From NCBI GenBank assembly GCA_001782235.1, contig MFOC01000007.1, positions 13,094 through 77,093 of the forward strand: a stretch of DNA of 64,000 nt, in the 5' to 3' direction. Positions 25,616-41,508 of the stretch are shown piece after piece. Every line of letters starts with the position of its first letter. Position 1 is the first letter of the stretch. Both the position numbers and the translations under genes were made by a program. Source of the DNA: Candidatus Levybacteria bacterium RIFCSPHIGHO2_02_FULL_40_18 (lineage in GTDB: Bacteria > Patescibacteriota > Microgenomatia > Levybacterales > GWA1-39-11). The notes beneath the pieces are model-generated. The model saw only the letters and a program-made list of their open reading frames with translations. It did no database searches and was not told the origin of the DNA.

Positions 25616-25669
25616 CAGACTTGACAATCACGATTCTTTTTATATAAACTATCAAAGAATTTATCTTCC

Positions 25670-26044: not shown

Positions 26045-26124
26045 AAAGCATGCACTGAGCGAGTTAAACGCGTTGAAGTGATTGCTTCAAGCCTTGAAAT
26101 AAACTAAAATACACATACTGTCTT

Positions 26125-26200
26125 GTGCCCGTAGTTCAACGGATAGAACACCTGGTTGCGGTCCAGGCGGTTGGAGGTTCGATTCCTCTCGGGCACGCCA
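26125..26200 (+). tRNA. tRNA-Arg (anticodon GCG by manual fold), CCA encoded
   Basis: Acceptor GTGCCCG/CGGGCAC; D stem GTTC/GAAC; anticodon stem CCTGG/CCAGG with loop TTGCGGT; T arm GGAGG-TTCGATT-CCTCT; 3' GCCA. Confidence 0.8.
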
Positions 26201-26285
26201 GGAGGGTTCGCATAGAGGCCAATTGCGCGAGTTTCGAAAACTCGAGGGAGCAATCCCTTCACAGGTTCGAATCCTGTACCCTCCG
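26201..26285 (+). tRNA. tRNA-Ser (anticodon CGA), long variable arm; directly abuts the preceding tRNA-Arg
   Basis: Acceptor GGAGGGT/ACCCTCC; anticodon stem CGAGT/ACTCG with loop TTCGAAA; long variable arm; T arm ACAGG-TTCGAAT-CCTGT. Confidence 0.85.
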
Positions 26286-26449
26286 CAGGTCAGAACGATA
26301 TTTAAGAAATAGCTAATCCTATTAGCTTTAACAAGCTAACTTTTCTTTTAATCAGAAGTTCCAACGGGTTTAGCTATTCCTAAGGACATTTTTTTAAAGT
26401 TTTACAATTTTGTGCCTAATTGGTGATTTTAAACAGGTTCCAACCGAGA

Positions 26450-26926
26450 CTAACCTTGTTTAGGAGCTTGCTCAAATGCGGGTTTGTTTGGAGTAAAAGG
26501 CATCGTTCCTTCTTTGGAAATGTACGCATCATATCCGCCTTTAATTAGCAGGTCATGTTGTTGACCAACGCAAATGGCATCATATGCACCACAGACTATT
26601 ATTGGTCTTCCTTCCGGGACATTGGCTCTTTCAAAAGGGCCCGCAGTAGTGTAATCGAAGTTATGTTCTATAAAGTCTAATTCTTTGAGTAATCTTTGAC
26701 GGGTTTCCTCATCTCTTTCTTGATTGTTTTCTATTTCGCTTTTATGAACAACTACATAAAATGGTGATTTGTCTTTAACATGACCCTCTTCATCCAAAAA
26801 CTCCTGATAAGACTTTACTAGTGGATTCTTTATTCGTTCTTTGGCTTTTTCTTCAAACTCTAATCTTTTTTTATGTTCAGCATCAGCTTCGTCAAAAAGT
26901 TTGTCAATGTCAATATCTTCGCTCAT
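26450..26926 (-). CDS. Hypothetical protein (C-terminal isochorismatase/cysteine-hydrolase-like segment)
   Basis: IIVCGAYDAICVGQQHDLLIKGGYDAYISKEG resembles the C-terminal part of the isochorismatase fold. The N-terminal half is acidic and low-complexity. Confidence 0.35.
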   Translation of the reverse strand: MSEDIDIDKLFDEADAEHKKRLEFEEKAKERIKNPLVKSYQEFLDEEGHVKDKSPFYVVVHKSEIENNQERDEETRQRLLKELDFIEHNFDYTTAGPFERANVPEGRPIIVCGAYDAICVGQQHDLLIKGGYDAYISKEGTMPFTPNKPAFEQAPKQG

Positions 26927-27007
26927 GTTTATATTATATAATACACATTGGGTCTTGTTGCTTGGGATTTGTAAAAGGTTCCAACATAGTCAACTAGGCA
27001 CCGCACG

Positions 27008-27079
27008 GCCCTTGTAGTTCAACGGATAGAATAGGGGATTCCGGATCCTCTGATGTGGGTTCGATTCCCGCCAGGGGCA
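27008..27079 (+). tRNA. tRNA-Arg (anticodon CCG)
   Basis: Acceptor GCCCTTG/CAGGGGC; anticodon stem GGGGA/TCCTC with loop TTCCGGA; T arm GTGGG-TTCGATT-CCCGC. Confidence 0.8.
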
Positions 27080-27089
27080 CCTTAATTTT

Positions 27090-27524
27090 ATGAAATTTGA
27101 GTTTTCAGCAGGAGGCGTTGTTTACAAAAAAGAGGATTCCAAAATTTATATTTTGGTTTCCCAGCATTCCCAGCATTTGGGCTGGGTTTTCCCAAAAGGA
27201 TTGATAGGTGACCATGTTAAAGAAGAAAAAAAGGAAGAAACTGCTGTCCGGGAAGTAAAAGAAGAAACGGGAGCAGAAGCGGAAATTATGGGTGAAATCA
27301 CACCAGTTACTTATTGGTATGCGTGGGAAGGGGAAAAGCGCAAGAAAACCGTCTATTATTTTGTTATGAAATTTACTGGCGGAGATATAACAGAACACGA
27401 CCATGAAATGTCTGCTGTTGAATGGCTCCCAGAAAACAAAGTTATGGAACGTCTAAGCTACAAAAGTGATAAGGATGCTTTTCTTGAGGCACTTCCTCTC
27501 ATCAAAAAGCTCGCAAAATCCTAA
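27090..27524 (+). CDS. NUDIX hydrolase
   Basis: Nudix box region …ETAVREVKEETGAEAE…; 144 aa. Confidence 0.7.
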   Translation: MKFEFSAGGVVYKKEDSKIYILVSQHSQHLGWVFPKGLIGDHVKEEKKEETAVREVKEETGAEAEIMGEITPVTYWYAWEGEKRKKTVYYFVMKFTGGDITEHDHEMSAVEWLPENKVMERLSYKSDKDAFLEALPLIKKLAKS

Positions 27525-27575
27525 CTCTTATTTTATAATTCACATACGAGCCTTATTGAAAAATGGGGAAAACCA

Positions 27576-27665
27576 GGTGGGATGTCCGAGTGGTTTAAGG
27601 AGCACGCTTGGAGAGCGTGTATGGCCGTAAGGTTATCCCGGGTTCGAATCCCGGTCCCACCGCCA
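27576..27665 (+). tRNA. tRNA-Ser (anticodon GGA), long variable arm, CCA encoded
   Basis: Acceptor GGTGGGA/TCCCACC; anticodon stem CACGC/GCGTG with loop TTGGAGA; T arm CCGGG-TTCGAAT-CCCGG; 3' GCCA. Confidence 0.85.
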
Positions 27666-27666
27666 A

Positions 27667-28224
27667 TTAGGTCTTTTCAAGGGGAAAGTTGTGTGAAAGC
27701 CACTCTGCAGATTTTTCCATAAAAGTTGGGTGGACATATTCACGATATGGAAGATAGCGAACTAAAATCTTTCGAACGTGTTCACGGGGAATATCTCCTA
27801 ACGAAATCTTAAGTTCCCCAGGTAAAAACGCTTGCGTTCTCACTATCAAGACGTCCGTTCTGTCTATAAATTTAAAGTAGAAATCATAAAGCTCTGACCA
27901 TATATAAAAATAGTCTTCTACTTTAATTCCTTCGGTTGTAATTTTGTAATGGAAATTGTGCGGCGGCACACTCGATAGTACTAGTGAAAGAAAAGTCAGC
28001 GCAACAAGAACTAGCATGAGTTCATATTGACTGAATAAGAATAAAATTACTTCAAAAAGACCCAGAAGCAGAATAACGGACAGATAAAATTGCCTTCCCT
28101 TTTTTGTAAATGGACGGCCGGGCGCACTCCAGGAGAGAAGAGTCTTTACATCAAAATCGTGCTCCGTATGTTCTGAAGGTTTATGTTGCGGTTGATGTTG
28201 ATCTTGATCAGGCGCGGCCTCCAT
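27667..28224 (-). CDS. Hypothetical membrane protein
   Basis: His/Gln-rich N-terminus followed by two TM helices; its end lies 2 nt from the tRNA-Ser 3' end. Confidence 0.35.
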   Translation of the reverse strand: MEAAPDQDQHQPQHKPSEHTEHDFDVKTLLSWSAPGRPFTKKGRQFYLSVILLLGLFEVILFLFSQYELMLVLVALTFLSLVLSSVPPHNFHYKITTEGIKVEDYFYIWSELYDFYFKFIDRTDVLIVRTQAFLPGELKISLGDIPREHVRKILVRYLPYREYVHPTFMEKSAEWLSHNFPLEKT

Positions 28225-28295
28225 ACTCTAATAATGCACCAAAACGACCACAGAATCAAGTGGTTCGAAAACTCTGGCCCGCCGAGTGTTCTGGA

Positions 28296-29168
28296 TTATA
28301 GTTCGAGGAGGTTAGTACTCTCGCCCTTTTTGGAGTCTTTGATATACTGCAGGTATCGCTCGGTTGAGGAAAGTCTTTTGTGTCCCAATACCTTTGACAG
28401 GAAAACCATAGAAATCCCATGTTTCAGATGGTGGGCGACAAAAGTATGCCTAAGATCATTTATCTTCGCACTCTCAATTCCTGCTCTCTTAAAATACCGC
28501 TCAATTGCGTCTCTAATATTTCTTACCAAGAAGGGCCTGCCGGTTTTTGTAACAAAAAAGTGGTCATTTGCGCTTTGAGGCCTTGCGGACAAATATCTTT
28601 TTAGCGCATCTTTTGCTCGTTTATTTAACGGTACTGTTCTTTGGGGGTGGCCTTCATAAGGCCGGACCGTAAGAACGCTATCTGAGACATCTTCCACCCT
28701 AATATTTGCTAGTTCTCCAATTCTAATGCCTGTTTGAAGCAGAACCTCGACAATCGCGTAAATTCTTGGATCTCCTGAGGCAGCATCTCTTAATGCCCTA
28801 TATTCAAGGGGGGACAAAATCCTGGGAGGATTTAACTCATATTTTGGATGTTTGACCAGAAGCGAGGGATCGTCTGTAATGTATTCACTGACCTTCAGGA
28901 ACCTATAGAAGGTTCTTGTAGAGTTAAGTTTTCTTGAAACAGACTTTGGTGTATATCCCCGGGACTCCATTGAGGCAAGAAAGGCCGCAATATCATCGCT
29001 TGTCACCTCATGAATGTGCTCACGTTTTAATTCCTCAAGAAATGATATAAGTTGGTCAATATCTTTACCGTATGCTAAGATAGTGGCAGAGGCCTTATTT
29101 TTGGACCTAAGAAAGCCCTCAAATTTTGCCTTTGCTTCTCTTATTTTTATGGGATTCATAAAATTCAA
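28296..29168 (-). CDS. Tyrosine site-specific recombinase (XerC/XerD / phage-integrase family)
   Basis: N-terminal SAM-like domain; C-terminal catalytic residues in conserved order (…GIRIGELANIR…, HTFVAHHL, LGHKRLSSTERYLQY). 290 aa. Confidence 0.8.
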   Translation of the reverse strand: MNFMNPIKIREAKAKFEGFLRSKNKASATILAYGKDIDQLISFLEELKREHIHEVTSDDIAAFLASMESRGYTPKSVSRKLNSTRTFYRFLKVSEYITDDPSLLVKHPKYELNPPRILSPLEYRALRDAASGDPRIYAIVEVLLQTGIRIGELANIRVEDVSDSVLTVRPYEGHPQRTVPLNKRAKDALKRYLSARPQSANDHFFVTKTGRPFLVRNIRDAIERYFKRAGIESAKINDLRHTFVAHHLKHGISMVFLSKVLGHKRLSSTERYLQYIKDSKKGESTNLLEL

Positions 29169-29245
29169 TAAAGCCTATAATATCAACAGGAAGTATATTT
29201 GTCAATCCCGAGTATTAACCGGGGATTGACCCTTCCACTTTCACA

Positions 29246-29581
29246 ATGAAAAAAATCCTGCCCGTAATTGCTATTATTATTTTGCTGATTGTTATTAAAA
29301 ATAACATATCCGGAATTTTTAAAACGCTTGAAGATGAAAATACTGCCGGAAATCTTAAAGAGAAACTGAGCGAGGAACAAAGGGAAAACCTGTTTTTGAA
29401 AGAACGGCTGTTTTACGTTAAAACAAATCAATTTGTTGAGGAAGAAGCTCGGGAGAAGCTTTTGATGAATAGGCCTGGAGAATATGTGGTGATTGCACCT
29501 ACTTCTGCCCCGCTCAACCGCGAAAAAATCGAAGTTGAAACCCGCCCCAACTGGCAAAAATGGTTCGAACTATTTTTCTAA
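29246..29581 (+). CDS. Cell division protein FtsB/DivIC family (septum formation initiator)
   Basis: N-terminal TM helix, coiled coil, and the hallmark EEEAREKLLMNRPGEYVV motif. Confidence 0.6.
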   Translation: MKKILPVIAIIILLIVIKNNISGIFKTLEDENTAGNLKEKLSEEQRENLFLKERLFYVKTNQFVEEEAREKLLMNRPGEYVVIAPTSAPLNREKIEVETRPNWQKWFELFF

Positions 29582-30007
29582 TTTATCTCTATATAGCCTT
29601 ACGAATTCGGGCCACTGAGAATGCATCGGCGAAGGCAACATCTTAAACGTAAACCATCCTAGTCTTTCATGCCTCTTAGGGTCTCCATTCTTTACCTTTT
29701 TTGGATCAATTCGAACCTTGTAATCAAATGCTATCCAGTGTGTTTTTCTTCCTTTTTCATCCTTTCGATGAACATCACGAAATCCTAAAAATTCAGCTTC
29801 GATAATATCAGTACAATACTCTTCCCGAATCTCCCGTGCAAGTGTTTTGAGAATTGGCTCTCCAAAATTCACTCCCCCACCCCCAGGATCCCATTTTCCA
29901 TGCTCATCCCGAGCCTTATTTGTTCGCTTTGCAAGAAGAAAATTACCATCCCCATCATGGCAAAAGAATACAACTCCAACCCCAACATGATCCACACCTT
30001 TTCTCAC
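29570..30007 (-). CDS. NUDIX hydrolase
   Basis: GGGGVNFGEPILKTLAREIREEYC Nudix box. Confidence 0.7.
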   Translation of the reverse strand: MRKGVDHVGVGVVFFCHDGDGNFLLAKRTNKARDEHGKWDPGGGGVNFGEPILKTLAREIREEYCTDIIEAEFLGFRDVHRKDEKGRKTHWIAFDYKVRIDPKKVKNGDPKRHERLGWFTFKMLPSPMHSQWPEFVRLYRDKLEK

Positions 30008-30102
30008 AAGTCCGATTATAGCAAATGTGTTGCCTGCCCTGAAGAATTTGAAGGGCGGAGATTGGAGGAAATTAGAAAGAATTTCCTGAAGAAAATTTGA
30101 GG

Positions 30103-30357
30103 CTAAATTTTGAGTTTTAAAATTTTTATTTTCTTTTCTCTACTCCAGCCTTTGATTCGACTTTCCCGTTTTAAAGCAGCGGATTTTGATTCGAGTCGTT
30201 CGGTATAGACTAGTTTAATTGGCTTATGCGAGCGTGTGTATCTACCACCTTTGCCATTCTTATGATCTTTGAACCGTGCTTGCGGATTATTCGACGACCC
30301 AGTATAAAGACTGTCATCAGAACATAAAAGAATGTATACAAACCACATCTCTTTCAA
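30103..30357 (-). CDS. GIY-YIG nuclease family small protein
   Basis: WFVYILLCSDDSLYTGSSNN…RFKDH in an ~84-aa UPF0213-like protein. Confidence 0.75.
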   Translation of the reverse strand: MKEMWFVYILLCSDDSLYTGSSNNPQARFKDHKNGKGGRYTRSHKPIKLVYTERLESKSAALKRESRIKGWSREKKIKILKLKI

Positions 30358-30436
30358 TTGTAACTCGAAAGTGGTATAATTTTTGAACGTAAAACGTGCG
30401 GGGTAGTGTAAAGCTGCACAGGAGGCTCATAATCTC

Positions 30437-32173
30437 CTAGACAAGGTGCGATTCCTTGCTCCGCAACACAGTAGGAATTGAGGCATACTTTTCTTCAAAT
30501 TGTGCCCGTAATTCAGCCTCTTTCTCAGGTGCGACCCTTTCCGCAATCACCGGAGATTCTTTTCTCATTCTTGCAATCGCTCCAATGTATTTTGGACTGT
30601 CAAATATAACCTTTTTATCCATAAGTGTTAGGTGCAACCCTAATCCCATAAAAATATCCCGTTTCACTTTAATATCCGGAAGGGCAAATCTCGCTCTAGC
30701 TCTTGCTACAAAATTGAAAGCGCTGGCAGTATCGTTATTGGATTGAATCATCTGCTCATCAAAGTTGCCGAGTTGCTTCTCAATAGCCTTTAATTCGCTC
30801 TCTAGTGCCTCTTTTTGCTCTTTGTATTGTTCGTCTGATAAAAGACTGCTATCAGCATTTGTTGGCGATATTTTAAGCTGTAAGAGGTTGTTCAGTTTTA
30901 TCCTGCAGGAATCGTGTGCCTTTTTAATACCTTTAACTGCTTCTTCCTCAAAATCCTTATTTGCTTCGTTCATTTTGCGAATTTGTTTTATTGCCCAATT
31001 CATAAAAAGAGGGGAAATTTCAACCTGTGAAAGCCTGTTGTCTATTTGTTCCTCAAGGTTATCTACTCTGACTGCGCGCTGTAAGCACGCAGAATTTTTC
31101 TTTCTTCCACACCTGTAATAAACATAGTGAAGTATTTTAGGATTATTCATGTTCTCAATAATTGTTCCACAATCCGTGCATTTATCCTTGTTCTTTTGGG
31201 TAAGGGAAAACTTTGTCTTACAGCTTGAGCAGATACATTGCCATTTTTGTTCAGCTACTATTCCTGAATTACAGAACCCGCAGCGCATAAGGGCATTGAA
31301 AGCATAATCATTATGTTTGAGCTTGTATTGACTCCTACCACCCAACTTCATTTGAATTTCATTAAAAACTTCCTCACTCACGGCTTTTTCATGGCCGCCT
31401 TCATACCATTTCCCACTCCCCAAGGGATATTCAAACTTTCCGCAGTAGAAGGGGTTAGTCAAAATAAAATATATCATAGATAGAGAAAGTGGCTTGCCGC
31501 CTATTCTCTTGTGTTGCCTAGTTTTAAAATGCCATTCTTCATCCGCGATTCTGTGAATTTCAATCGCAGGCGTCCCGGAATGAAATAGCTCAAAAATCTT
31601 TTTTACGTATGGCATACGCTCCGGGTCTGTGGGTATTTTCCTTAATCCGCTTTCGGTTGCTTTGTCATTCAAATATCCTTGTGGGGCTACTCCCGGTCTC
31701 CATCCGTTGCGCGCTTTTCCTTCCAAACCCCTACTTACGACGATACTTTTATCATCACTGTCTTTCTTAGACATTCCAAATTCAAGGGCTAACATAAATT
31801 TATCTTCCGGCGTGTTGCGATATGCACGAGAAGGGGTGCGGATTTCAATAAGTTTTCCTTCGTCCATTAGGTATAATAGTTGTCCTGCGTCAAGAGAGTT
31901 GCGGCATAGTCGGTTAGGATGCCATGTTAATATTGCATTTGCTTCACCTTTCTCTATTCTTTGAAGCATAAGGTTAAAAAGGGGTCTACCTGTCTTAAAA
32001 GCTGATTGGGATTCTTGTAAAACATCAACTACTGAAAGATTTTGTTTCGTTCGGACTCCCTCAATAATGTAAAGTTGGTCAGGTAAAGAGGCGGCTTGTC
32101 TCTCGCGGTTGTCTTCGGAAGATTTACGGGCGTAGCCTATATATTTCAATCTCAATTGTTCATTCATCTTCAT
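30437..32173 (-). CDS. Large serine recombinase (resolvase/invertase catalytic domain + recombinase domain + zinc ribbon)
   Basis: N-terminal YIGYARKSSEDNRERQAASLPDQ (catalytic Ser), recombinase domain, Cys-rich zinc ribbon (CGFCNSG…CSSC, CTDCG), and a C-terminal coiled coil. Confidence 0.85.
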   Translation of the reverse strand: MKMNEQLRLKYIGYARKSSEDNRERQAASLPDQLYIIEGVRTKQNLSVVDVLQESQSAFKTGRPLFNLMLQRIEKGEANAILTWHPNRLCRNSLDAGQLLYLMDEGKLIEIRTPSRAYRNTPEDKFMLALEFGMSKKDSDDKSIVVSRGLEGKARNGWRPGVAPQGYLNDKATESGLRKIPTDPERMPYVKKIFELFHSGTPAIEIHRIADEEWHFKTRQHKRIGGKPLSLSMIYFILTNPFYCGKFEYPLGSGKWYEGGHEKAVSEEVFNEIQMKLGGRSQYKLKHNDYAFNALMRCGFCNSGIVAEQKWQCICSSCKTKFSLTQKNKDKCTDCGTIIENMNNPKILHYVYYRCGRKKNSACLQRAVRVDNLEEQIDNRLSQVEISPLFMNWAIKQIRKMNEANKDFEEEAVKGIKKAHDSCRIKLNNLLQLKISPTNADSSLLSDEQYKEQKEALESELKAIEKQLGNFDEQMIQSNNDTASAFNFVARARARFALPDIKVKRDIFMGLGLHLTLMDKKVIFDSPKYIGAIARMRKESPVIAERVAPEKEAELRAQFEEKYASIPTVLRSKESHLV

Positions 32174-32351
32174 CTTTTTTTATTTTATACACTAAGTTTA
32201 ACTTTTGGCAAGTTGTCGCCGTAAATAGCTTTTATAAACTTTATAAGCTTTGTTGCAAGCCCTACAGCTTCTTGATCGTTTAATTCTTCTCCATACTCTT
32301 TCAGGTATAACTCTTTAAATTCGGCAACAGCTTGAGGGTCTAATTGCACAG

Positions 32352-32888
32352 TTATTCCCTCTCCCTTTCTGTATCCTCTTGGAAACTACTATCAAAAGAA
32401 CCTAAATCAACCCTAGAAGAACGATAAAGCCTTTGGGGGGTATTCCGATCTCGTTTCTCTTGCGAAATTGCATATTTCTCTTGCAATTCTGCATTAATCC
32501 TATACATATCTGCATAAAGGTCGTGCGGATTTGCATAATCTTTATCATACATTTTGTCAGCGACGTCGGTCAGAAAAAGAGGTAAATAGCCTAGAAGTAT
32601 GTATCGTTTGTGTTTAATTGCATACTTTCTGTCTTTGGCTTCTAGCTTATCAAGTCCTCTTGAGAGTTTGCTTTGGCTAATATTGAGAAGGGCAGCTATT
32701 TCCGTCTGCGTCCCAACAACATGGCCAAATTGATTTGGATACTTCCTGTCCCACCTTGCGTCAATCACTAACGCTATGTAGAGACTAAACAGGTGATAGC
32801 CAATATCCTGTCTAAGCATTTTAGAATGTCTTGGTAGCGCTAGATAGCCATGATACCGTTTAGCTTCATCTTTATTCATATTCATCAC
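32352..32888 (-). CDS. Hypothetical protein with a putative HTH
   Basis: EIAALLNISQSKLSRGLDKL is HTH-like. Confidence 0.3.
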   Translation of the reverse strand: MMNMNKDEAKRYHGYLALPRHSKMLRQDIGYHLFSLYIALVIDARWDRKYPNQFGHVVGTQTEIAALLNISQSKLSRGLDKLEAKDRKYAIKHKRYILLGYLPLFLTDVADKMYDKDYANPHDLYADMYRINAELQEKYAISQEKRDRNTPQRLYRSSRVDLGSFDSSFQEDTERERE

Positions 32889-32900
32889 TCCATTGCATAT

Positions 32901-33155
32901 TTATCGCCTTGCAAATAGGCGGTCTTTTAGTGTTTTGATTGAGGTTGCGTATTCTTTGGCGTCAACTTGAAGTTCGCCTGCCCAATAAGCATTAGAGGAG
33001 TGTTCGCAGGAGTTCTTGTCAGCAAATACGAACCAATAGAAGTTTTGCTCTTGCTCTAGCCGGAGTAGTTTTGCCCCTTTGGCTGTCAAGGCGGCCGCTT
33101 CTGATAAATCCTTTGTTCTATAAATATCTTTTCCCCCTACATCCCCATTTTCCAT
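32901..33155 (-). CDS. Small hypothetical protein (possibly DUF5659-like)
   Basis: 84 aa; YRTKDLSEAAALTAKGAKLL… pattern recalled as recombinase-associated; weak. Confidence 0.25.
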   Translation of the reverse strand: MENGDVGGKDIYRTKDLSEAAALTAKGAKLLRLEQEQNFYWFVFADKNSCEHSSNAYWAGELQVDAKEYATSIKTLKDRLFARR

Positions 33156-33222
33156 ATAAAAAGACTAAATGCTATGCTTGGGCTAATCATAAAGGATGAG
33201 GCGGATTGAATATAAGAGACGG

Positions 33223-33891
33223 TTAAGGACTTGCTAAATGTCCCCCTGAATTTAAGAAGGCTTTATATCTTTTAATCTGTTTCTTTACATTGTCTACAAA
33301 TGCTCTCGGATCAATTGCTCCTCTGTATGGCGTTCCTGTCGCGATCTGCAGGAGTTTTGCCCCACTTTTCCTTAACCAATACCATTCTCGATCCCTTTTT
33401 ATTTCCTGCTTGGTATCTCCCTTATAAGCACTTTCTAATGGAAGATAAATATTTGAAACTGTATATAACCAATCTCCGTATTTAAAATTTTTCTTTGAGA
33501 TTTCAGACTCGTTTAGATCTTCATTCCTTACCTCTCCGCATACCAATGCTCGTAAAATAAGATCATATAGCGATGGTGAAATGCCGAGCCTTTTTAATAA
33601 TTGCTCAGCCTCGAACTCAACAGGATCCAAATATGCAATCTCGCGTTCTTTGGATGGATCATCTCCTAAATTGTCTTTTGCTTCATAGAGAATCGAAGCG
33701 GCATGCGAACTTAATGGGAAGTCATGGTATGATTCGCGCCATGAATGATACTTATCATAGGGAATCAGACCCTTATTGAGCCTCCAACACTGTCTGATTT
33801 CAATGAAGCTGTTAAGAAGTTTATCCTGATCGAGGATAAATGCAACTCCTGCAAATGTCTTTAAATCGTCAATCTCAATATCAATCTCCAT
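33223..33891 (-). CDS. Hypothetical protein
   Basis: 222-aa ORF, divergent from the next gene; no recognised motif. Confidence 0.35.
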   Translation of the reverse strand: MEIDIEIDDLKTFAGVAFILDQDKLLNSFIEIRQCWRLNKGLIPYDKYHSWRESYHDFPLSSHAASILYEAKDNLGDDPSKEREIAYLDPVEFEAEQLLKRLGISPSLYDLILRALVCGEVRNEDLNESEISKKNFKYGDWLYTVSNIYLPLESAYKGDTKQEIKRDREWYWLRKSGAKLLQIATGTPYRGAIDPRAFVDNVKKQIKRYKAFLNSGGHLASP

Positions 33892-34407
33892 TTGAGGACA
33901 TTCTACACAAAACCCCTACTCGGTTGCCACCTGTGGGCCGCGAGGATGCCCTGTGGCAAGAGATTATATGAGGTTTTAGGAAATACCCCGACTTGCAAAC
34001 GGGTTTATAATATAAATATGGAAAATTCAGTGGTAGCCGTCCCTATTGGTAGGCCGGCATTGAGTAACGATGACATAAACCTCATTTTCCGCAAATTAGA
34101 GCCACACTTAAAGATGGGATTGTCTATCAATAGAGCTTGTTATAAAGCCTCGATTCCAAAATCTACAGTCTATGATTTATACAATGAAAATAGTCAATTT
34201 GCGGAAAGAATCGATACTGCTCGAAATTACTTTACAGACTTAATAAATAACATAATACATACTGAATTATTAGACATAGTTGAGTTTCAAAAGATTAGCT
34301 TGGGCCCTTTAAATACAGATGAGAAAAAGTTCATACTATGGATTGCCGCAAATAGCAACGCCATGAAAGAGTATTATTGCTCCAACATCCAAAAGATAGA
34401 TGAGTAA
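33892..34407 (+). CDS. Hypothetical protein (possible HTH; the true start may be the internal Met near 34018)
   Basis: LSINRACYKASIPKSTVYD is HTH-like. Confidence 0.35.
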   Translation: MRTFYTKPLLGCHLWAARMPCGKRLYEVLGNTPTCKRVYNINMENSVVAVPIGRPALSNDDINLIFRKLEPHLKMGLSINRACYKASIPKSTVYDLYNENSQFAERIDTARNYFTDLINNIIHTELLDIVEFQKISLGPLNTDEKKFILWIAANSNAMKEYYCSNIQKIDE

Positions 34408-34728
34408 TTTATAAAATCAGCTTCAAAGTGGCTCAGAAAACTCGGGTCTTCACCTTTTAAATGGCTCCACAAACTCTACAAATCTCTTTTTAATGGCTCT
34501 AAAAACTCCAATTGACCAAGAATGCTATAATCAAGCTATAATTTGATTGCCTAAACTCACAGTAATGTGGGCATGGCACAAAAACCTTCGCAGAATTAAG
34601 CTCGTCGTCAGAGCATCTGCGAAGGTTGTCGCCCGAAAGGACGGCAGGTGGGGCAACCCATCGTTGGCGGCGAGCTTTGCTATTGTTCGCCTCCAACAAA
34701 ACCTAAACTGTCGAGGGAGGTGAAAAAT

Positions 34729-35172
34729 ATGGGTAAATTAAAATTAGCAGGAATTATTTTTGTAGCATTTATTATCGGCGTATTCGTTGGTATTTCAGGA
34801 AACGGTAGGAGTTCTACTACAAATAGTCAGGAGATAAAACAATCTACAAGCACCAATAGTCCTGCCCCATCAGAAGAAGCAAAAGATACGGGTAAAGTTG
34901 AGGTCAAAAGCCAATCGAAAAAGATATCATCAATTGGATATATGGAAATAGTCGGTGAAGTAGTAAACAATACAGATAGACCTGTGTCATCTATCAAAAT
35001 AACAGCAACCTACTATGATGAGGAAGGTAAAGTCATAGGGACGAGCTTCTCTTATGCAGGGGACACATCAGATACGCCGCTTGCGGTTGGAGCGACAGCT
35101 CCATTTGAGGTAAGCAGCTATCCGGATAAAATAGATACTGACAACTATAAACTTGATGTTAATTGGAATTGA
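34729..35172 (+). CDS. Hypothetical secreted/membrane-anchored protein
   Basis: MGKLKLAGIIFVAFIIGVFVGISG signal-anchor, then a Ser/Thr-rich linker and a beta-rich domain. Start taken at the Met with a GGGAGGTG SD. Confidence 0.4.
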   Translation: MGKLKLAGIIFVAFIIGVFVGISGNGRSSTTNSQEIKQSTSTNSPAPSEEAKDTGKVEVKSQSKKISSIGYMEIVGEVVNNTDRPVSSIKITATYYDEEGKVIGTSFSYAGDTSDTPLAVGATAPFEVSSYPDKIDTDNYKLDVNWN

Positions 35173-35239
35173 TTCCTTTTTTGTTTTTTGGTCAGTTGCT
35201 TTTATGAGTCAAGCTCTACATTAAGTAGGAAAATCTTAT

Positions 35240-36007
35240 GTGGTATATTCTCGTCCTATAGGTATGATTAAAGCGTTAGTCGTCATTTTAGCTTTTCTTG
35301 CATTTCTTATATCCCTTACTCCTACTTCTCATGCGGCATATAAAGAAACTGAAATGGACAAGAAAAAGCTTTTCAAGATAGTGAGTATTACTGATGGCGA
35401 TACAATTACTGCAAGTATTCGCAGAAAAAATGAGAGTTTAAGGTTGCTCGGAATTGATACTCCTGAAAGCGTTGATCCAAGAAAGCCGGTTCAGTGTTTT
35501 GCGAAAGAGGCCACAAACAAAATGAAAGCATTTGTTTTAGGCAAGTTTGTAAAGTTGGTTGACGATCCAACGCAGGGGAATAGAGATAAATATTCAAGAC
35601 TTCTCCGTTATGTTTATTTGCCTGACAGCAAAGCGACTTTTGTAAATGGAGAGATGGTTAAACAAGGGTATGCTTTCTCCTACAGACAATACCCGACAAA
35701 AATGCTCGAGAAGTTCAATGCTTTTGAAAAATACGCACGAGAACATAATTTGGGCTTGTGGGGTTCATGTCCTATAAACGTGAACCCGTCAGCAACACTT
35801 AAACCTGTAAGAACTACAAACCTACCTGTTCAAAATCAACGACCATCACAGTCAGGACCAACTTATACCGGAGGAGACAAGGATTGTTCTGATTTTGCGA
35901 CACACGCGGAAGCTCAAACCTTCTTTATTTCACAGGGCGGGCCGGCAAGCGACCCTCACAGACTTGATGCAGACCATGACGGTCTTGCTTGTGAAACTCT
36001 ACCCTAA
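35240..36007 (+). CDS. Secreted thermonuclease (SNase-like) with a C-terminal Excalibur calcium-binding domain
   Basis: Signal-anchor; SITDGDTITA…LGIDTPES; YVYLPDSKATFVNGEMVKQGYA; C-terminal DADHDGLACE Excalibur motif. Confidence 0.7.
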   Translation: MVYSRPIGMIKALVVILAFLAFLISLTPTSHAAYKETEMDKKKLFKIVSITDGDTITASIRRKNESLRLLGIDTPESVDPRKPVQCFAKEATNKMKAFVLGKFVKLVDDPTQGNRDKYSRLLRYVYLPDSKATFVNGEMVKQGYAFSYRQYPTKMLEKFNAFEKYAREHNLGLWGSCPINVNPSATLKPVRTTNLPVQNQRPSQSGPTYTGGDKDCSDFATHAEAQTFFISQGGPASDPHRLDADHDGLACETLP

Positions 36008-36074
36008 ATCTATTTAGGTTAAAAGTTGAGGTAAAACAATCTCAATGTATGACGCCTCTATTAAAATAAGCGCC

Positions 36075-36896
36075 CTATGTAAAACTATTGTTTAAAAAGA
36101 ATTCTCGTATATCAAACACTCTTTTTGAATAATCAACAAACATCTGTATATTGTGTAAAGCGACCTTTCTCACAGGCATATTCCCGGTAGGATGTCCTGC
36201 TTGATTTCTGTTAACACGGATGAAATTGAAAATTCCATCAAGATATGTATCAAGATCTTGTTTAAGGTCTGTAGGAATTTGGTTTAGAAAGTGAGATAGC
36301 TCTGCTTTGAAGATTGTATATTGAGAGGTAATCCATTTATCTCTTATTCGATTTTGGAAAGAAGATCGTCTAGTCGTATTTGGAAGCGCTTGAGCAAAAG
36401 ATTCGATTAGAAGGAGGACTACATTTTCAGATGCAACACCAAGAGTAATAGCAGATGAAAGGAGCAGGTCTCGATTATATGCTGTAATTGCTTCGCCTAG
36501 ATATTTTAAAGTAATATCATCTACGCTTGCTACTTGAGCTTTATACTCCGCTAAATATCCATCAGGATCGTAAGGAAGAATTATCTCATTTTGGAAACAC
36601 TCCTCGCCGTAGCTCGTAACTGATATATACCCAAAACTTTGAGCATCCAAGTCATTTTTATTTCCAAAAGCAAGAAGTCCATTAGAAACCCATTCGTTGA
36701 TTATTTCAAGAATTATTGGGTTAGTTTTTGCTTCTTCGAGGTGATTATATTCGGGCATCATATTCCTAAACAAATCCCTGACGGATTGAATAAGCGTCTG
36801 CCCTTTATAATTACATACCGATTGAAAATCGTCAGAGGAGCACTTTTTAAAGAAAGTGAACATGTGTGTTCTTATCTCGTCTCTCGTCATACTCAA
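36075..36896 (-). CDS. Hypothetical protein with an Rx4H motif (HEPN-like; possible Abi-type defence protein)
   Basis: RVNRNQAGHPTG contains R-x4-H. Otherwise alpha-helical and acidic; no other recognised motif. Confidence 0.35.
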   Translation of the reverse strand: MSMTRDEIRTHMFTFFKKCSSDDFQSVCNYKGQTLIQSVRDLFRNMMPEYNHLEEAKTNPIILEIINEWVSNGLLAFGNKNDLDAQSFGYISVTSYGEECFQNEIILPYDPDGYLAEYKAQVASVDDITLKYLGEAITAYNRDLLLSSAITLGVASENVVLLLIESFAQALPNTTRRSSFQNRIRDKWITSQYTIFKAELSHFLNQIPTDLKQDLDTYLDGIFNFIRVNRNQAGHPTGNMPVRKVALHNIQMFVDYSKRVFDIREFFLNNSFT

Positions 36897-37147
36897 TGAT
36901 AATATTATACCTTACAAGAAAAAAGGGTAGATTATGAAATAATAGTGGTGAAATTAAGCTAATTGTGGTATAAATACAGGTGTGGTTTGGGTGAGGAAGT
37001 AGGTGCGGATTTCTTCCAACCCCCGCAACAACGAACCATTCGCTATCGCTCAGGTTCATCGCTGCGCAGCCTAAGAAGCGAGTGTGAGGCAGGAATGTAC
37101 CGGAGTCCTACGACTGGTACGTTCCAACGAAAAAAACCTCTTATCCT

Positions 37148-37411
37148 ATGAAATTCTTCTACGTCTACGTTCTCAAGAGCATTGATAAAGATTTTATTTA
37201 TGTAGGTATCACAGCAAGTCTCGAGAAACGCTTCTTCGAACACAACAACAAGGAAGAGCTTTCAACCAAACAGTACGCTCCATTTGAATTAATATTTTAC
37301 GAAGCATATCTAAACGAAAAAGATGCCAAAAGGCGAGAAGAATATTTCAAAACCACAAAAGGCAAAGTCACACTCCGCCAAATACTAAGGGAATATTTGA
37401 AAGAGACTTAG
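37148..37411 (+). CDS. GIY-YIG nuclease family small protein
   Basis: FFYVYVLKSIDKDFIYVGITASLEKRFFEHN in an 87-aa UPF0213-like protein. Confidence 0.75.
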   Translation: MKFFYVYVLKSIDKDFIYVGITASLEKRFFEHNNKEELSTKQYAPFELIFYEAYLNEKDAKRREEYFKTTKGKVTLRQILREYLKET

Positions 37412-37468
37412 GTTTTAGCTTCAAATATCACAACAGGGTCGAAATGGTTCGCGCCTTTTAAAGTAAGC

Positions 37469-38005
37469 TTAAGTGGTTGATTGCTTGTGGGCTGCAAACT
37501 GTTTGAAGGCCTTTTCAATTCTTCTTTCTATAGAATTATTCCATTTTGAATTCGGTCGTAAAACCCATGCAGGATGAAGAGAATGTGAATCCCCCTTTGA
37601 AAGTTCCTGTAATAATAATGGCATAATTTCAACGAAGACCATGGGAACTCTTCTCTTTTTCCATTCTAGTCTTTCCTCTCCATCTTCAAGAAAAGGGAAT
37701 ACGATTACCCCACTTTTCTCAACTCCTTTAATTGCGGCTTTTGCTGTCTTTTCGTTTACCCCTTCAAAAACCAAGCTATCTGCCACTTCCGCTCTGGCAA
37801 CCTCATTAATTTCACTTTCCGAATTAATGTCGCCAGTTAAATAAGGGTCATCGTTATAAGAATTATGGTCCCTCCAGTAAAAGAGGTGGGGCTCTCTTCC
37901 TCTTATTGCCCACGTCACAATTACAATATGTTTTTGGACACGAGGTTCTACTTGAGGTGTTAGCTCTGGGGCAGAACTACGCTCTGATAGCTCTGGATTA
38001 GCCAT
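37469..38005 (-). CDS. Hypothetical protein
   Basis: 178-aa ORF; no recognised motif. Confidence 0.35.
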   Translation of the reverse strand: MANPELSERSSAPELTPQVEPRVQKHIVIVTWAIRGREPHLFYWRDHNSYNDDPYLTGDINSESEINEVARAEVADSLVFEGVNEKTAKAAIKGVEKSGVIVFPFLEDGEERLEWKKRRVPMVFVEIMPLLLQELSKGDSHSLHPAWVLRPNSKWNNSIERRIEKAFKQFAAHKQSTT

Positions 38006-38112
38006 GACGCATTCTATTATATTTTTATTTCTGCGTCAACAATCAAAAATTAAGAATCCTCAACTCTCTTCTTTTTGCTTTTTATTCCCCTTTTTAGTAC
38101 AATAACAACTTA

Positions 38113-38910
38113 ATGAAAAGAGAGAGTTTAAAAGTAGATAAGCGAACAATTGCCGGCAAAAAGGTTAGGAAACTCCGGCGGGAAGGGATTCTTCCTGCCA
38201 ATATTTATGGCAAGGAGTTTAAATCTACCTCTGTTCAGCTCCCAATCAAAGATTTCTTAAATGTATTTAATATCGTACACGAAACAGGTCTTGTGGATAT
38301 TGCATTCGATAGCCAGATAATCCCGGTTCTTATCCATAATGTTCAAATAGATCCCAGAAGCCAAAATCCGGTTCACGCAGATTTCTTTAAAGTAAATCTT
38401 AAAGAAAAAATCACTGCCCGCGTTCCAGTAGTTGCAGTTGGCGAGGCAAAGGCAGTACTTGATAAAGTAGGACTTCTTGAACAGCCGGTTTCAGAGCTTG
38501 AGGTTGAAGCTCTTCCAACAGATCTTCCTGAAAGAATTGAAGTTAATGTCGAGAACCTAGCAAAGGTGGACGATCAAATAATGGTCTCGGACATAAAAGT
38601 TCCGGATGGCATAGCTATCTTAAATGAAACATCACAACTAGTATTTAAGATTGGAGAGCTTGTGACAAAAGAAATGGAAGAAGAGATTGCGGCAGCGGAA
38701 GCTGAGGCGGCAGCTGCAGCGGAAGCACAAGCAGAGACCGCACCTGCCGAAGGTGAGGTTCCTGCTGAAGGAGAAGCGCCAGCAGAGGGCGAAACTCCCA
38801 CCGAGGCTCCAGTCGCACAGACCGAGGGCAAACCTAAACCTGAAGGCGCCGTCCCAGAGGGCTCTGCCCGGAGGGAAAAACCGACCGAAGCAGAAGCTCC
38901 CAAAGAATAA
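38113..38910 (+). CDS. rplY: 50S ribosomal protein L25 / general stress protein Ctc, with a long Ala/Glu/Pro-rich C-terminal tail
   Basis: N-terminal LKVDKRTIAGKKVRKLRREGILPANIYGK, typical of L25/Ctc. The C-terminal ~90 aa are low-complexity (AEAEAAAAAEAQAETAPAEGE…). Confidence 0.7.
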   Translation: MKRESLKVDKRTIAGKKVRKLRREGILPANIYGKEFKSTSVQLPIKDFLNVFNIVHETGLVDIAFDSQIIPVLIHNVQIDPRSQNPVHADFFKVNLKEKITARVPVVAVGEAKAVLDKVGLLEQPVSELEVEALPTDLPERIEVNVENLAKVDDQIMVSDIKVPDGIAILNETSQLVFKIGELVTKEMEEEIAAAEAEAAAAAEAQAETAPAEGEVPAEGEAPAEGETPTEAPVAQTEGKPKPEGAVPEGSARREKPTEAEAPKE

Positions 38911-38922
38911 ACTAGCTTTTAG

Positions 38923-39285
38923 CTATTGGCCGTTAGCCATTAGCTTTTCAAGCTCTCTTGCTCTTTCGAAAGACGGATCAAGCCTCAAAGCTTCATCTAA
39001 AAAATTTAGGGCTGTTTCTTCATCCCCAAGCTTTGCCGCATAATATCCCGCCTCAAAAAAAGCATCGGGAGAATTAGGGTGTTTGCGAGAAACCTCTACC
39101 CAATAGGAGAAATTCTCAAGCGTCTCTTGCCTTGCTTGTTTGGCCTCTGCCAAATTAATGAACAAGACAGCCACGAGAAGTAAAGTGAAGATGAACAAAA
39201 CGCAAAGGAAGAAAAAAAAATAGTTTATGAAGTAAATCCTTTGCGGTAAAGATTCGGTAATTCTGCGGTAATTAATAGTTAACAT
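38923..39285 (-). CDS. TPR-repeat membrane-anchored protein
   Basis: TM helix followed by TPR-like FFEAGYYAAKLGDEETALNFLDEALRLDPSF. Confidence 0.4.
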   Translation of the reverse strand: MLTINYRRITESLPQRIYFINYFFFFLCVLFIFTLLLVAVLFINLAEAKQARQETLENFSYWVEVSRKHPNSPDAFFEAGYYAAKLGDEETALNFLDEALRLDPSFERARELEKLMANGQ

Positions 39286-39348
39286 ATAATCTATGGAAAT
39301 TGGCTCATGGAAATTGGATATTGGTAATAGAAATTAAAAACCATTTTC

Positions 39349-41508
39349 TTATTTGGCTGGCCAGGACGAAACCATAATCGAGTCTTTCGCTCCCAACTTC
39401 CTACACAGCTCTTCTGTAATAAACGGCATGAAGGGGTGAAGCAACCTTAAAAGTATTAAGTATAAAGTAGTAAGTATTAAGTATGAATCTTTATCAATTC
39501 TGATTTTAACGTCTTCAATATACTTGTCCGCAAACTCATGCCAGATAAATTCATATAGTCTTTCCGCTGCCAAATTAAACTGATAATTATCGAGGTTATT
39601 AGTTAGTTGGTTAGTTAGTTCGTCGACTTTAGCTACCCACTCTTTATCGTTCTTACGTTTCGCAATTTTTTTCAATTCCTCGATACTGGATACTCGATAC
39701 TGGATACTCGATACTCGGTTCATCTCTATGAAGCGGCCGATGTTCCACAGCTTATTCGTAAAATTCCTCATCCCCTGAAGCTTTGCATATGACAATGCCT
39801 GGTCATTTCCAAGTGCCGTTCCATAGACAAGAGCAAACCTGACAGCGTCTGCTCCATACTGCTCAACGACTTCTATTGGATTTACAACGTTTCCCTTTGA
39901 CTTACTCATTTTTTTGCCATAAGGATCTTTAACTAACCCATGCAATACAACATTTTCAAATGGGACTTTTCCCGTTGCATATATTCCCACAATAACCATA
40001 CGGGCAACCCACCAGCGTAAAATATCGTACCCCGTCTCCATCACCGTCGTCGGATAGAACCTTTCATAATCCAGACTGTTCTCAATTTTTGATTTTTGAT
40101 TTTTGATTTTTGATTTTGAGCTACTTTGCGTCAGCAAAGTAGCGAACGGCCATTGCGCCGACGAAAACCAAGTATCAAAAGTGTCAGGATCCTGGGCGAT
40201 TGTTTTAGACTCACATTTCAAGCATTTTTCGGGAGTGATACCGTCTGTTACAGTCCAGTTCAAACATTTTTCACAGAACCAAGCCGGAATTCTAATTCCC
40301 CAAACAATCTGGCGCGAAATGTTCCAATCGCGGATATTTTCTAAAAACTGAAAGTAGATTTTCTCAAATGATTTGGGGTGAACCTCTATCTTTCCTTTTC
40401 GAACAGCGTCAATCGCCGGTCTAGCCAAGGGCTCCATTTTCACAAACCACTGTTCTCGAGGCAATGGCTCAATTACATTTTTACACTTGTAACACAGACC
40501 AATTCTATGAATGTAATTGTCGTCTATCTTTTCGATCAATCCTTTTTTCTGCATTTCTTCAACCACTGCTTTACGGGCTTGCTTCACATAAAGACCAGCG
40601 AATTTGCCTGCATGTTCGTTCATTTTTCCATCAAAACCAATAACCTGGCGTATCTTGAGATTATGTCTTTGACCTACTTCAAAATCATTAAAATCGTGTG
40701 CCGGAGTTATTTTCACAACTCCTGTTCCAAATTCCGGATCAACCGAATCGTCAGCAATCACTTTAATCTTAGCCTTTCCTAAAACCGTTTTTATTTCAAT
40801 CTCCTGTCCTATGTACTTTTTATACCTTTTATCATCGGGGTGAACGGCAACAGCCGTGTCTCCGAACTTTGTTTCCGGGCGAGTCGTGGCAAGAGTCAGA
40901 GGGCCGTATTTAATGTAGTAAAGAGGATTTTTTCTCTCTTCATAAACTACTTCAAGATCTGAGAAGCTTGTTCCATCATAGGTACAATAGTTAACCAGCC
41001 TTTTCGCGCGGTAGACTAGCCCGTCATCATAAAGTCTTCTGAAGGTTCTATAAACTATCGAAATTATATCCGGATCAAGAGTAAACTTCATGCGGGACCA
41101 ATCAAGGGAGAAGCCGAGTTTTCGAAGTTGACTCTCCATTCCGCCGCGGTTTTCTTGAACAAAATCCCAAATCATTTGATAGAGAGTTTCGCGATCATAG
41201 TCGAATCGAGACTTACCCTCATTGGCCAAGTGTTTTTCAAACACAAATTGGGTTTCAAAACCTGCGTGATCTGCACCCGGCAGCCAAAGAGCGGCCGCCC
41301 CTTTCATCCGCTGATACCGTATTAGGATATCTTCAATCACATACATCGCGTGTCCAAAATGGAGGGGAGCATTAGCATTTGGTGGAGGAAGAATTATGGA
41401 GTAGGACCTCCCATCCGGATTTACTTCCGGCTTAAAATATCCGTTCTTCTCCCACTCCGCATAAATCCTTTCCTCAACCTTTTTATGATCGTAAACCTTA
41501 TCCATCAT
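39349..41508 (-). CDS. valS: Valine--tRNA ligase (compact form, 719 aa)
   Basis: PPPNANAPLHFGHA and KMSKSKGN class-I motifs and an editing-domain-like middle region. Carries three in-frame tandem-repeat insertions. Confidence 0.75.
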   Translation of the reverse strand: MMDKVYDHKKVEERIYAEWEKNGYFKPEVNPDGRSYSIILPPPNANAPLHFGHAMYVIEDILIRYQRMKGAAALWLPGADHAGFETQFVFEKHLANEGKSRFDYDRETLYQMIWDFVQENRGGMESQLRKLGFSLDWSRMKFTLDPDIISIVYRTFRRLYDDGLVYRAKRLVNYCTYDGTSFSDLEVVYEERKNPLYYIKYGPLTLATTRPETKFGDTAVAVHPDDKRYKKYIGQEIEIKTVLGKAKIKVIADDSVDPEFGTGVVKITPAHDFNDFEVGQRHNLKIRQVIGFDGKMNEHAGKFAGLYVKQARKAVVEEMQKKGLIEKIDDNYIHRIGLCYKCKNVIEPLPREQWFVKMEPLARPAIDAVRKGKIEVHPKSFEKIYFQFLENIRDWNISRQIVWGIRIPAWFCEKCLNWTVTDGITPEKCLKCESKTIAQDPDTFDTWFSSAQWPFATLLTQSSSKSKIKNQKSKIENSLDYERFYPTTVMETGYDILRWWVARMVIVGIYATGKVPFENVVLHGLVKDPYGKKMSKSKGNVVNPIEVVEQYGADAVRFALVYGTALGNDQALSYAKLQGMRNFTNKLWNIGRFIEMNRVSSIQYRVSSIEELKKIAKRKNDKEWVAKVDELTNQLTNNLDNYQFNLAAERLYEFIWHEFADKYIEDVKIRIDKDSYLILTTLYLILLRLLHPFMPFITEELCRKLGAKDSIMVSSWPAK
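39450..39486. repeat. AGTATTAAGTA-family tandem repeat, in frame inside valS
   Basis: aagtattaagtataaagtagtaagtattaagtatgaa. Confidence 0.75.
39681..39718. repeat. GATACTSGATACTCG tandem repeat, in frame inside valS
   Basis: cgatactggatactcgatactggatactcgatactcgg; encodes NRVSSIQYRVSSIEE. Confidence 0.8.
40084..40118. repeat. TTTTTGA heptamer tandem repeat, in frame inside valS
   Basis: aatttttgatttttgatttttgatttttgattttgag; encodes SKSKIKNQKSKIEN. Confidence 0.8.

Follow-up and report, generated by a model that had tools for sequence, protein, structure and literature searches.

The window analyzed here is a stretch of 64,000 nt from Candidatus Levybacteria bacterium RIFCSPHIGHO2_02_FULL_40_18, a genome of the candidate phyla radiation (CPR), in which a 6,562-bp integrative mobile element lies at the 3' end of a tRNA-Met(CAU) gene (all positions of the element are given in window coordinates). 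The genome surrounding the element is compact with a GC content of ~40%. Host genes to the left encode a XerC-like protein, DivIC and a NUDIX protein, those to the right a 178-aa protein, L25, a TPR protein and ValS. The original prediction, made from the letters of the sequence, had already named NUDIX and ftsB on one side and rplY and valS on the other as host genes and had listed two GIY-YIG genes, a large serine recombinase (LSR), an SNase-Excalibur nuclease and an Rx4H protein in between; all of them are confirmed by the open reading frame (ORF) listing and the profile searches. It contained neither the tRNA-Met(CAU) target nor a LOOT RNA (Table 1). A leftward operon, from 33891 to 30437, comprises the genes for a 222-aa helix-turn-helix (HTH) protein, a DUF5659 protein, a 178-aa winged-HTH protein, a 54-aa protein and the LSR. 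Rightward, a 129-aa HTH gene is followed by a repeat array, the LOOT RNA, an FxLYD protein gene and the nuclease gene, while a 271-aa winged-helix and HEPN protein is encoded convergently to this unit. The small ORFs had been described as divergent pairs, which is true for the 222-aa and 129-aa genes; the other pair is convergent.

Table 1. Features of the element and its immediate flanks, in window coordinates (L002 and L006 are contigs with an empty site)
Feature	Position	Strand	Evidence
Left GIY-YIG gene, 84 aa, host flank	30103-30357	-	Pfam 73 bits; beside the tRNA in L002 and L006
Host tRNA-Met(CAU), integration target, attB at its 3' end	30397-30466	+	ARAGORN; Rfam tRNA 46.8 bits
LSR, 578 aa in the integrated state	30437-32173	-	Pfam Resolvase and Recombinase; PHROG integrase 2e-55
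attL copy of the 8-bp core CCGCAACA (last 6 nt of the tRNA and 2 nt)	30461-30468	+	L002/L006 junctions
54-aa protein directly upstream of the LSR	32185-32349	-	tblastn
178-aa winged-HTH DNA-binding protein	32352-32888	-	weak MarR/HTH_24-type matches, residues 60-85
84-aa DUF5659 protein	32901-33155	-	Pfam PF18903 32.7 bits, over cut-off
222-aa protein, new helical N-terminal domain and C-terminal sigma-4/LuxR-like HTH	33223-33891	-	
129-aa HTH protein, divergent from the 222-aa gene	34018-34407	+	weak small-terminase likeness
Three 23-nt direct repeats (CTTTTAAATGGCTC.A.AAACTC)	34421-34508	+	repeat search
LOOT RNA (RF03000)	34548-34662	+	Rfam 87 bits vs. gathering score 46.4, full model 1-121
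147-aa FxLYD protein	34729-35172	+	NCBIfam NF038353 42 bits vs. cut-off 23
SNase-Excalibur nuclease, C-terminal Ca-binding Excalibur domain	35240-36007	+	Pfam SNase 81 bits, Excalibur 27 bits
271-aa winged-helix and HEPN protein, RNxAGH motif	36075-36890 (36075-36896 in the ORF listing)	-	family alignment and AF2 model
Detached LSR 3' segment, P arm of attP, encoding GLEEIRTYFLTQTTPVFIPQLA and a stop (22 aa)	36954-37022	-	attP-form ORF reconstruction
attR copy of the core CCGCAACA, right end of the element	37023-37030	+	empty-site comparison
Right GIY-YIG gene, 87 aa, outside the polymorphic element	37148-37411	+	Pfam 60 bits; kept in the empty site

The limits of the element were derived from contigs that encode a protein identical to the L25 protein of the window. 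Two of these loci are occupied (L001 and L003), and two (L002 and L006) represent the kind of empty site for which a comparison with related genomes had been suggested. The empty-site contigs agree with the window at every position over 8,918 and 11,888 bp (100.000% identity, 20.8 kb of flank, 0 mismatches), and the sole difference is the 6,562 bp between both core copies. As this exact match overlaps by precisely 8 bp at the junctions, at both copies of the core, the element extends from 30469 to 37030. The originally proposed limits of 30103 and 37411 were thus too wide: L002 and L006 lack 30469-37030 only. Both GIY-YIG genes, thought to bound the element in outward orientation, are kept in the empty site (...CCTTGCTCCGCAACAACGAACC...), where they lie 238 bp apart with the tRNA-Met(CAU) gene alone between them and hence flank the integration target. 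The tRNA is intact in occupied and empty sites, with an identical sequence in L002, and the LSR ORF ends within its 3' part. The att sites are simple, with a short 8-bp common core and a precise, conservative insertion. Near 30090 and 37420, where short direct repeats had been expected, direct or inverted repeats are limited to short ones at chance level, the real ends being the 8-bp repeats of attL and attR. The repeat search did not flag the true core, which is too short and came from the empty-site comparison instead. Composition does not mark the boundaries, with GC fractions of 0.35-0.43 inside and outside the element and no step in GC or skew at its limits. A reading of 37000-37030 as a displaced 3' half of the tRNA was discarded because the tRNA is complete at attL; the likeness is due to the attP arm, a stretch that likewise codes for part of the LSR.

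Presence or absence of the element is a precise polymorphism within one strain (the window versus L002 and L006), and the element is shared between hosts. Contig L013 stems from a different host, with amino acid identities of 81% for XerC, 59% for FtsB and 84.5% for GIY-YIG and with different genes farther out, and carries the element at the same tRNA site with 7 mismatches in 5,160 nt of its interior (99.86% nt identity). The strain polymorphism and this near-identical copy bear out the earlier claim of an integrated mobile element with an LSR, a nuclease and a HEPN gene. In L011, the element and its right flank (99.98% identical) are joined to a third kind of left flank. There, the tRNA-Met gene is interrupted by a ~190-nt group I intron, and GIY-YIG shows 79% identity. 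L011 may be a cross-strain assembly, though the left flank itself is real. Two short contigs of 6.7 kb (L014 and L015) hold just the element, ending in attL and attR, as expected for an assembly graph that branches at a polymorphic insertion. The identical LSR protein occurs in several NCBI accessions of metagenome-assembled genomes (MAGs), the names shown being Levybacteria; for the HEPN protein, one MAG labelled Woesebacteria is given. Host proteins identical to those of the window, L25 for instance, likewise appear in several NCBI MAGs under the name Candidatus Levybacteria (Microgenomates). The element was apparently recently mobile in this CPR (Levybacteria) genome.

The LSR matches the profiles of a catalytic domain (PF00239 Resolvase, 57.2 bits, cut-off 23.3) and a recombinase domain (PF07508, 36.1 bits), and its match to Zn_ribbon_recom (16.7 bits) stays under the cut-off. 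Its residues 11-489 align to residues 15-481 of SprA of SPbeta (9dxh), including the Cys-rich and coiled-coil stretch, and R16 and S18 align to R20 and S22 (the nucleophilic serine) of SprA. By this likeness, the LSR is predicted to catalyze recombination between attP and attB. It belongs to the same enzyme class as the integrases of serine-integrase phages and islands (phiC31, Bxb1, A118, SPbeta SprA, SCCmec CcrAB) and has the same domain order, i.e., a catalytic N-terminal domain, a recombinase domain and a Zn-ribbon/coiled-coil region. These systems and the window element also have in common a short shared core, attP and attB sites that differ from each other and an insertion that is precise and conservative. 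The window element differs in its target, a tRNA 3' end, in an attP located within the integrase ORF and in an extra C-terminal region of the LSR of ~90 aa with a detachable tail. Unlike the serine-integrase temperate phages, the element has no phage structural genes.

Related LSRs were collected at 17 loci from GTDB species genomes. In 15 of them the protein is 52-73% identical to the window LSR (Levy-, Blackburn-, Gottesman-, Woese-, Amesbacteria and other Microgenomates), and in the other two ~37%. No relatives were found in IMG/VR. The comparison with phages and plasmids that had been advised along with the original prediction gave no DNA match in GenBank phages or PLSDB plasmids, and the LSRs of GenBank phages reach at most 25% identity. 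At all 17 loci, the LSR gene ends directly at a tRNA gene of the opposite strand, and where an intron-less tRNA was called, the ORF reaches ~20-30 nt into it. The target is usually tRNA-Met(CAU), several times with an intron; tRNA-Phe (L021), tRNA-Asp (L032) and tRNA-Ser (L033) also occur. The introns are group I introns of ~190-200 nt in the anticodon loop of tRNA-Met(CAU) (11756-11946 in L011, and also in L017, L018, L019, L020, L022 and L027) that match Rfam RF00028 with 52-77 bits, while the tRNA of the window and of the empty site has none. The LSR coding sequence just ahead of the core (...ATTCCTACnnTGTTGCGG, encoding ...IPT[VL]LR) is conserved, and the distal att motif TTCTGATTTC-N8-CCCCGCAAC was located in 12 relatives, with element sizes of ~4-11 kb. 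According to a review, mycobacteriophage serine integrases do not use tRNA genes (PMC9262239), which makes the systematic tRNA targeting by this Microgenomates LSR family unusual. The 54-aa ORF is the sole accessory gene conserved with the LSR, lying directly upstream of it in 11 of the 17 related loci (tblastn). Its product has no family match in profile searches (Pfam, PHROG, NCBIfam) and is a candidate directionality or regulatory partner. The cargo of the relatives differs: L024 (3637-7772) carries DruA, NurA and HerA-like genes, which are defence-like, L028 (7903-9525) a Toprim and AAA_25 primase-helicase gene and L017 (6559-7125) a Terminase_2 small subunit gene.

In the integrated state, the last seven codons and the stop of the LSR gene (30437-30460) are read from host tRNA DNA past the core, and the protein ends in ...IPTVLR-SKESHLV, a read-through of the tRNA antisense strand. 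When the right end of the element is joined in silico to its left end, as in the excised circle, the same frame goes on to ...IPTVLR-GLEEIRTYFLTQTTPVFIPQLA and a stop, which gives a protein of 593 aa. Integration thus swaps the C-terminus of the LSR, as the reading frame continues through the core whether or not the element is integrated. The attP-form ORF was rebuilt for the window and five relatives and then for further relatives, and the distal tail segment is found in 12 relatives. The circle-form tails read LRGLEEIRTYFLTQTTPVFIPQLA in the window, LRGLEEIRNFFLSQTTPIFIPDLS in L017, LRGLEEIRIFFLTQSTPLFIPDLR in L018, LRGLEEIRTYFLTRNDSVIIPNLA in L024 and LRGIQEIRNYFLTLQTPVFIPTL in L031, each followed by a stop, and LRGLEEIRNYFLTLPVPIFIPDLR... 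in L030. They share the consensus LRG[LI]xE[IL]R[TN][YFW]FL...P.FIP.L, with the stop at the same place. Nucleotide differences among six elements amount to 73, 47 and 130 at the first, second and third codon positions, respectively, and the Arg codons vary among elements (CGC, AGG, CGA, AGA). This codon-position skew and the synonymous Arg codons indicate selection on the tail at the protein level, beyond selection on the att site. The integrated-state tails are unconserved read-through of 7-48 residues. Since the alignment of the LSR with SprA stops at residue 489, the tail is part of the extra, family-specific C-terminal region. With its tRNA 3'-end targets and with attP kept inside the LSR coding sequence, this family departs from the textbook pattern, and a conserved C-terminal peptide is therefore encoded by the excised form only.

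We arrive at an integrative mobile element that was put at the 3' end of tRNA-Met(CAU) by its own LSR, with attP inside the LSR gene, and give this reading a probability of roughly 85%; it builds on the boundaries, the target, the strain polymorphism, the spread between hosts, the family-wide layout of tRNA and attP-in-ORF and the coding status of the tail. The LSR would recombine attP with attB at the extreme 3' end of the tRNA-Met(CAU) gene, with a crossover somewhere within the shared core CCGCAACA, so that the tRNA stays intact. In the excised circle, the LSR ORF would run across attP and end in the conserved 22-aa peptide GLEEIRTYFLTQTTPVFIPQLA; after integration, the tail segment lies 6.5 kb away at the other end of the element and the ORF ends in SKESHLV. 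Because attP is inside its LSR ORF, the element would make two recombinase isoforms, depending on its state. The swap may also change the activity of the enzyme. Far more tentatively, we suggest that this Microgenomates family of serine integrases with attP in their own gene uses the tail of the two state-dependent isoforms as a built-in directionality or activity switch, an idea that may well prove wrong. For example, the full-length form would be competent for integration, and the tail-less form would be competent for excision together with the 54-aa partner, or be silenced. Literature text searches returned no paper that describes a serine integrase gene spanning attP, nor any about LSRs of CPR bacteria, which is not proof of novelty.

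Genes that depend on the circular state are known from other elements. The integrase gene of the archaeal SSV1 type is complete only in the excised circle, the enzyme being a tyrosine recombinase whose gene is split into two large parts, and TnpX of Tn4451 is properly expressed only in the circular form, where a promoter, not a coding sequence, is reconstituted at the circle joint. In the window element, only the last 22 LSR codons are detached. The nearest documented concept is the integration-dependent immunity of the mycobacteriophages BPs and Brujita, in which the repressor gene harbours attP and its product loses a C-terminal tag upon integration (PMC4557955; PMC9262239). The likeness described there comprises an attP within a gene, an attB that overlaps a tRNA 3' end and a protein whose C-terminus is altered by integration (PMC4557955; PMC9262239). 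BPs differs in that the gene cut is a repressor gene, the integrase is a tyrosine integrase and the lost tail is an ssrA-like degradation tag. In the window element, the gene cut is that of the serine recombinase itself, and its predicted tail (…TPVFIPxL) has no evident ssrA-like ending.

A number of results weigh against the LSR-driven element as proposed here. A probe for the attP junction (GAGGAAGTAGGTGCGGATTTCTTCCAACCCCCGCAACACAGTAGGAATTGAGGCATAC), as an excised circle would contain it, had no match in IMG/VR, assemblies being a weak test for such a circle. The probe had four matches in metagenome contigs of the Joint Genome Institute (JGI), all of them chromosomal relics of a different element. 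These four long contigs had been considered as circles or tandem copies, which was ruled out as they hold the decayed, different element beside the tRNA-Met of a related genome. The exact 593-aa circle-form LSR protein is absent from a collection of 15 billion proteins. Profile searches of the element's proteins recognized no gene for replication, packaging or conjugation that could account for movement between cells, and no recognizable recombination directionality factor is present in the element. Transfer probably follows a route that the element does not encode, such as a satellite lifestyle, transformation or another. Dyad-symmetry scoring for the crossover dinucleotide was ambiguous, with CC|GC as the best centre in attB (12/22) and four equal centres in attP; it did not support a manual estimate of the crossover at C|A. 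The host names at bin level depend on metagenome binning, and as to the direction of the polymorphism, the empty-site strain could be a never-occupied ancestor instead of an excisant.

The strongest alternative, which we nonetheless consider improbable, is a phage satellite comparable to the phage-inducible chromosomal islands (PICIs) or their minimalist counterparts (PICMIs) that would be excised upon infection of the CPR host by a helper phage and packaged in helper capsids. The small size (6.6 kb), the integrase, several HTH regulators, the divergent promoter pair and the absence of structural genes would suit a satellite, as would the spread between hosts at 99.86% identity. Indeed, the element resembles PICIs and PICMIs, as well as integrative mobilizable elements (IMEs) and cis-mobilizable elements (CIMEs), in combining an integrase, regulators and cargo at small size without structural genes, and small-terminase or primase-helicase genes occur in its relatives. 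Both the Terminase_2 protein of L017 (32 bits, cut-off 26.1) and the Toprim and AAA_25 primase-helicase of L028 are typical satellite modules. The 129-aa protein of the window itself matches small-terminase families weakly (Pfam Sf6_terminase 21.7 bits, cut-off 27; PHROG small-terminase families with E-values of 2e-4 to 7e-3), but this match is sub-threshold, lies mainly over the HTH and has no counterpart in the L017 protein, to which the 129-aa protein shows no similarity. Moreover, no helper phage is known, no genes for capsid remodelling or interference are present and neither IMG/VR nor GenBank phages contain a match. The integrase is a serine and not a tyrosine recombinase, the host belongs to the CPR, and no helper phage, packaging site or mobilization gene was identified.

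A decaying and immobile remnant of a prophage or island, with the polymorphism reflecting an old insertion or loss, is very unlikely. It would account for the lack of transfer and replication genes, for a circular form going undetected and for an integrated LSR devoid of its native tail, and in relatives this locus often holds relic att sites and fragments of an LSR. Yet all ORFs of the element are intact, the occupied and empty flanks show zero differences over 20.8 kb, and the interior is 99.86-99.98% identical across host backgrounds whose host genes differ by 19-41% at the protein level. That the whole 7.3-kb block moves with both GIY-YIG genes as terminal nucleases, the model of the original prediction, is scarcely credible, for although these genes face outward within 110-120 bp of each end and relatives hold GIY-YIG genes in cassettes flanked by att-type motifs, both stay behind in the empty site, their proteins are only 30% identical, and the left gene of L013 has diverged with its host (~85% nt identity) while the element has not.

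The leftward operon most likely forms a module for regulation and recombination. The 178-aa protein has 30 homologues, a few of them with precomputed winged-HTH Pfam domains, and a fold search for the 222-aa protein gave nothing informative beyond the HTH. Between the 129-aa gene and the LOOT promoter, the three 23-nt repeats are 74-87% alike and recur at spacings of 33 and 32 nt, close to three turns of the helix; they are candidates for operators or iterons. The promoter-like site, as read from the sequence, consists of TTGACC (34512-17), a 19-nt spacer and a perfect TATAAT (34537-34542). LOOT starts 5 nt downstream of TATAAT and ends 66 nt upstream of the next ATG, that of the FxLYD gene. 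The LOOT family has been described only as a metagenome-derived RNA (PMC7779021). The window copy, a full-length match to this family, belongs to a defined mobile element whose host lineage has a name, and it occupies the 5' end of a transcription unit. A pattern scan of IMG/VR for further copies yielded 38 matches, 37 of which look like chance; the first 19 loci (L038-L056) have no Rfam LOOT match, and the others were assessed visually against the flanking consensus. The only confirmed one is in contig L068 (4386-4511, 47.1 bits versus a gathering score of 46.4), which has a GC content of 26% and also encodes an LSR and several DNA methylases. There, LOOT lies ~70 nt upstream of a small ORF on the same strand, followed by a membrane protein gene. 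Among related LSR elements, L017-L023, L024, L027, L028 and L031 contain no LOOT match.

The FxLYD protein has a hydrophobic N-terminal segment, as read from its translation, and the N-terminus of the nuclease is hydrophobic and signal-like by eye. The nuclease is NucI-like and matches the PADLOC candidate family SNc+LTD (132 bits), which is the sole PADLOC hit on the element; none was obtained for the HEPN protein. The latter belongs to a family of 83 members in CPR and DPANN lineages without a Pfam domain. In an alignment of 38 sequences, R228 and H233 of the HEPN Rx4-6H motif are invariant and N229 is nearly so. An AlphaFold2 (AF2) model of the protein, with a predicted local distance difference test score (pLDDT) of 88.5, has the all-alpha HEPN fold; its matches are HEPN proteins and the RnlA/LsoA toxins and, for the N-terminal domain, winged helices. 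A search of the family profile against PDB sequences gave nothing significant, and no MNT or other antitoxin family was found in the element with Pfam, PADLOC or NCBIfam. The protein is a putative RNase toxin or abortive-infection effector. The 129-aa HTH gene, the repeat array, LOOT as a leader or small RNA, the FxLYD gene, the nuclease gene and the winged-helix and HEPN gene constitute the cargo, with functions that we infer from these matches.

Apart from the element, the tRNA-Met site appears to have its own history of insertions. The two GIY-YIG genes are the only ones in the 64-kb window. Homologous GIY-YIG genes lie between two P-arm/core motifs in L023, L028 and L035, the copy of L028 being next to a decayed LSR fragment. 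Arrays of short cassettes occur downstream of tRNA-Met in L035 (9283-11050), L028 (150-2620) and L023 (1420-2600), each cassette ending in GGTTCTGATTTC-N8-CCCCGCAAC; a GIY-YIG gene is found in some of the cassettes and a relic of an LSR 3' end in attP configuration in others. Similarly, short cassettes after the tRNA-Met of a related genome in the JGI contigs end in the P-arm/core motif, and one of them has a 45-nt relic of the LSR 3' end in attP configuration. These arrays suggest a tandem accretion and decay of elements at the tRNA, with GIY-YIG mini-cassettes among them, and are reminiscent of CIME accretion, where intact and decayed units also form arrays at one tRNA site. As its homologues lie in cassettes flanked by att-type motifs, the right GIY-YIG gene may be a relic of an older insertion; for the window this is tentative, given that only a weak, degenerate att-like motif (37410-37435) follows the gene. 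Just left of the site, a XerC/XerD-like tyrosine recombinase gene (28296-29168, minus strand) lies beside ftsB/DivIC, with a cluster of five tRNA genes in 25544-27665. In most related genomes, XerC and ftsB lie in synteny with the tRNA-Met site, and this pair is therefore a host feature outside the element. To the right, the L25 gene (rplY; 38500-38910, plus strand) ends in a low-complexity extension rich in Ala, Glu and Pro, which is a local GC peak of ~0.50, the highest within the profiled region 24000-44000.

The element is distinguished by its tRNA 3'-end target in a CPR host, by an LSR gene that spans attP and loses a conserved tail and by a cargo of LOOT RNA, nuclease and HEPN genes. The orphan LOOT RNA gains a host lineage, a probable promoter and a context as mobile-element cargo, at the 5' end of a unit for a membrane protein and a nuclease. 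The tRNA-Met locus turns out to be a place where small elements with defence-like cargo accumulate, i.e., HEPN here and DruA/NurA/HerA in a relative. To our knowledge, hardly any genetic tools exist for CPR bacteria, and integration vectors are as a standard built on serine integrases whose sites are known. A precisely bounded element with a defined set of LSR, attB and attP in a CPR (Levybacteria) genome thus has potential as such a tool. For the LSR family itself, the peptide that only the circle encodes offers a candidate mechanism of state sensing or directionality that can be tested directly and, if true, would be a new way to control the directionality of serine integrases, coupled to an unusual targeting of tRNA genes.

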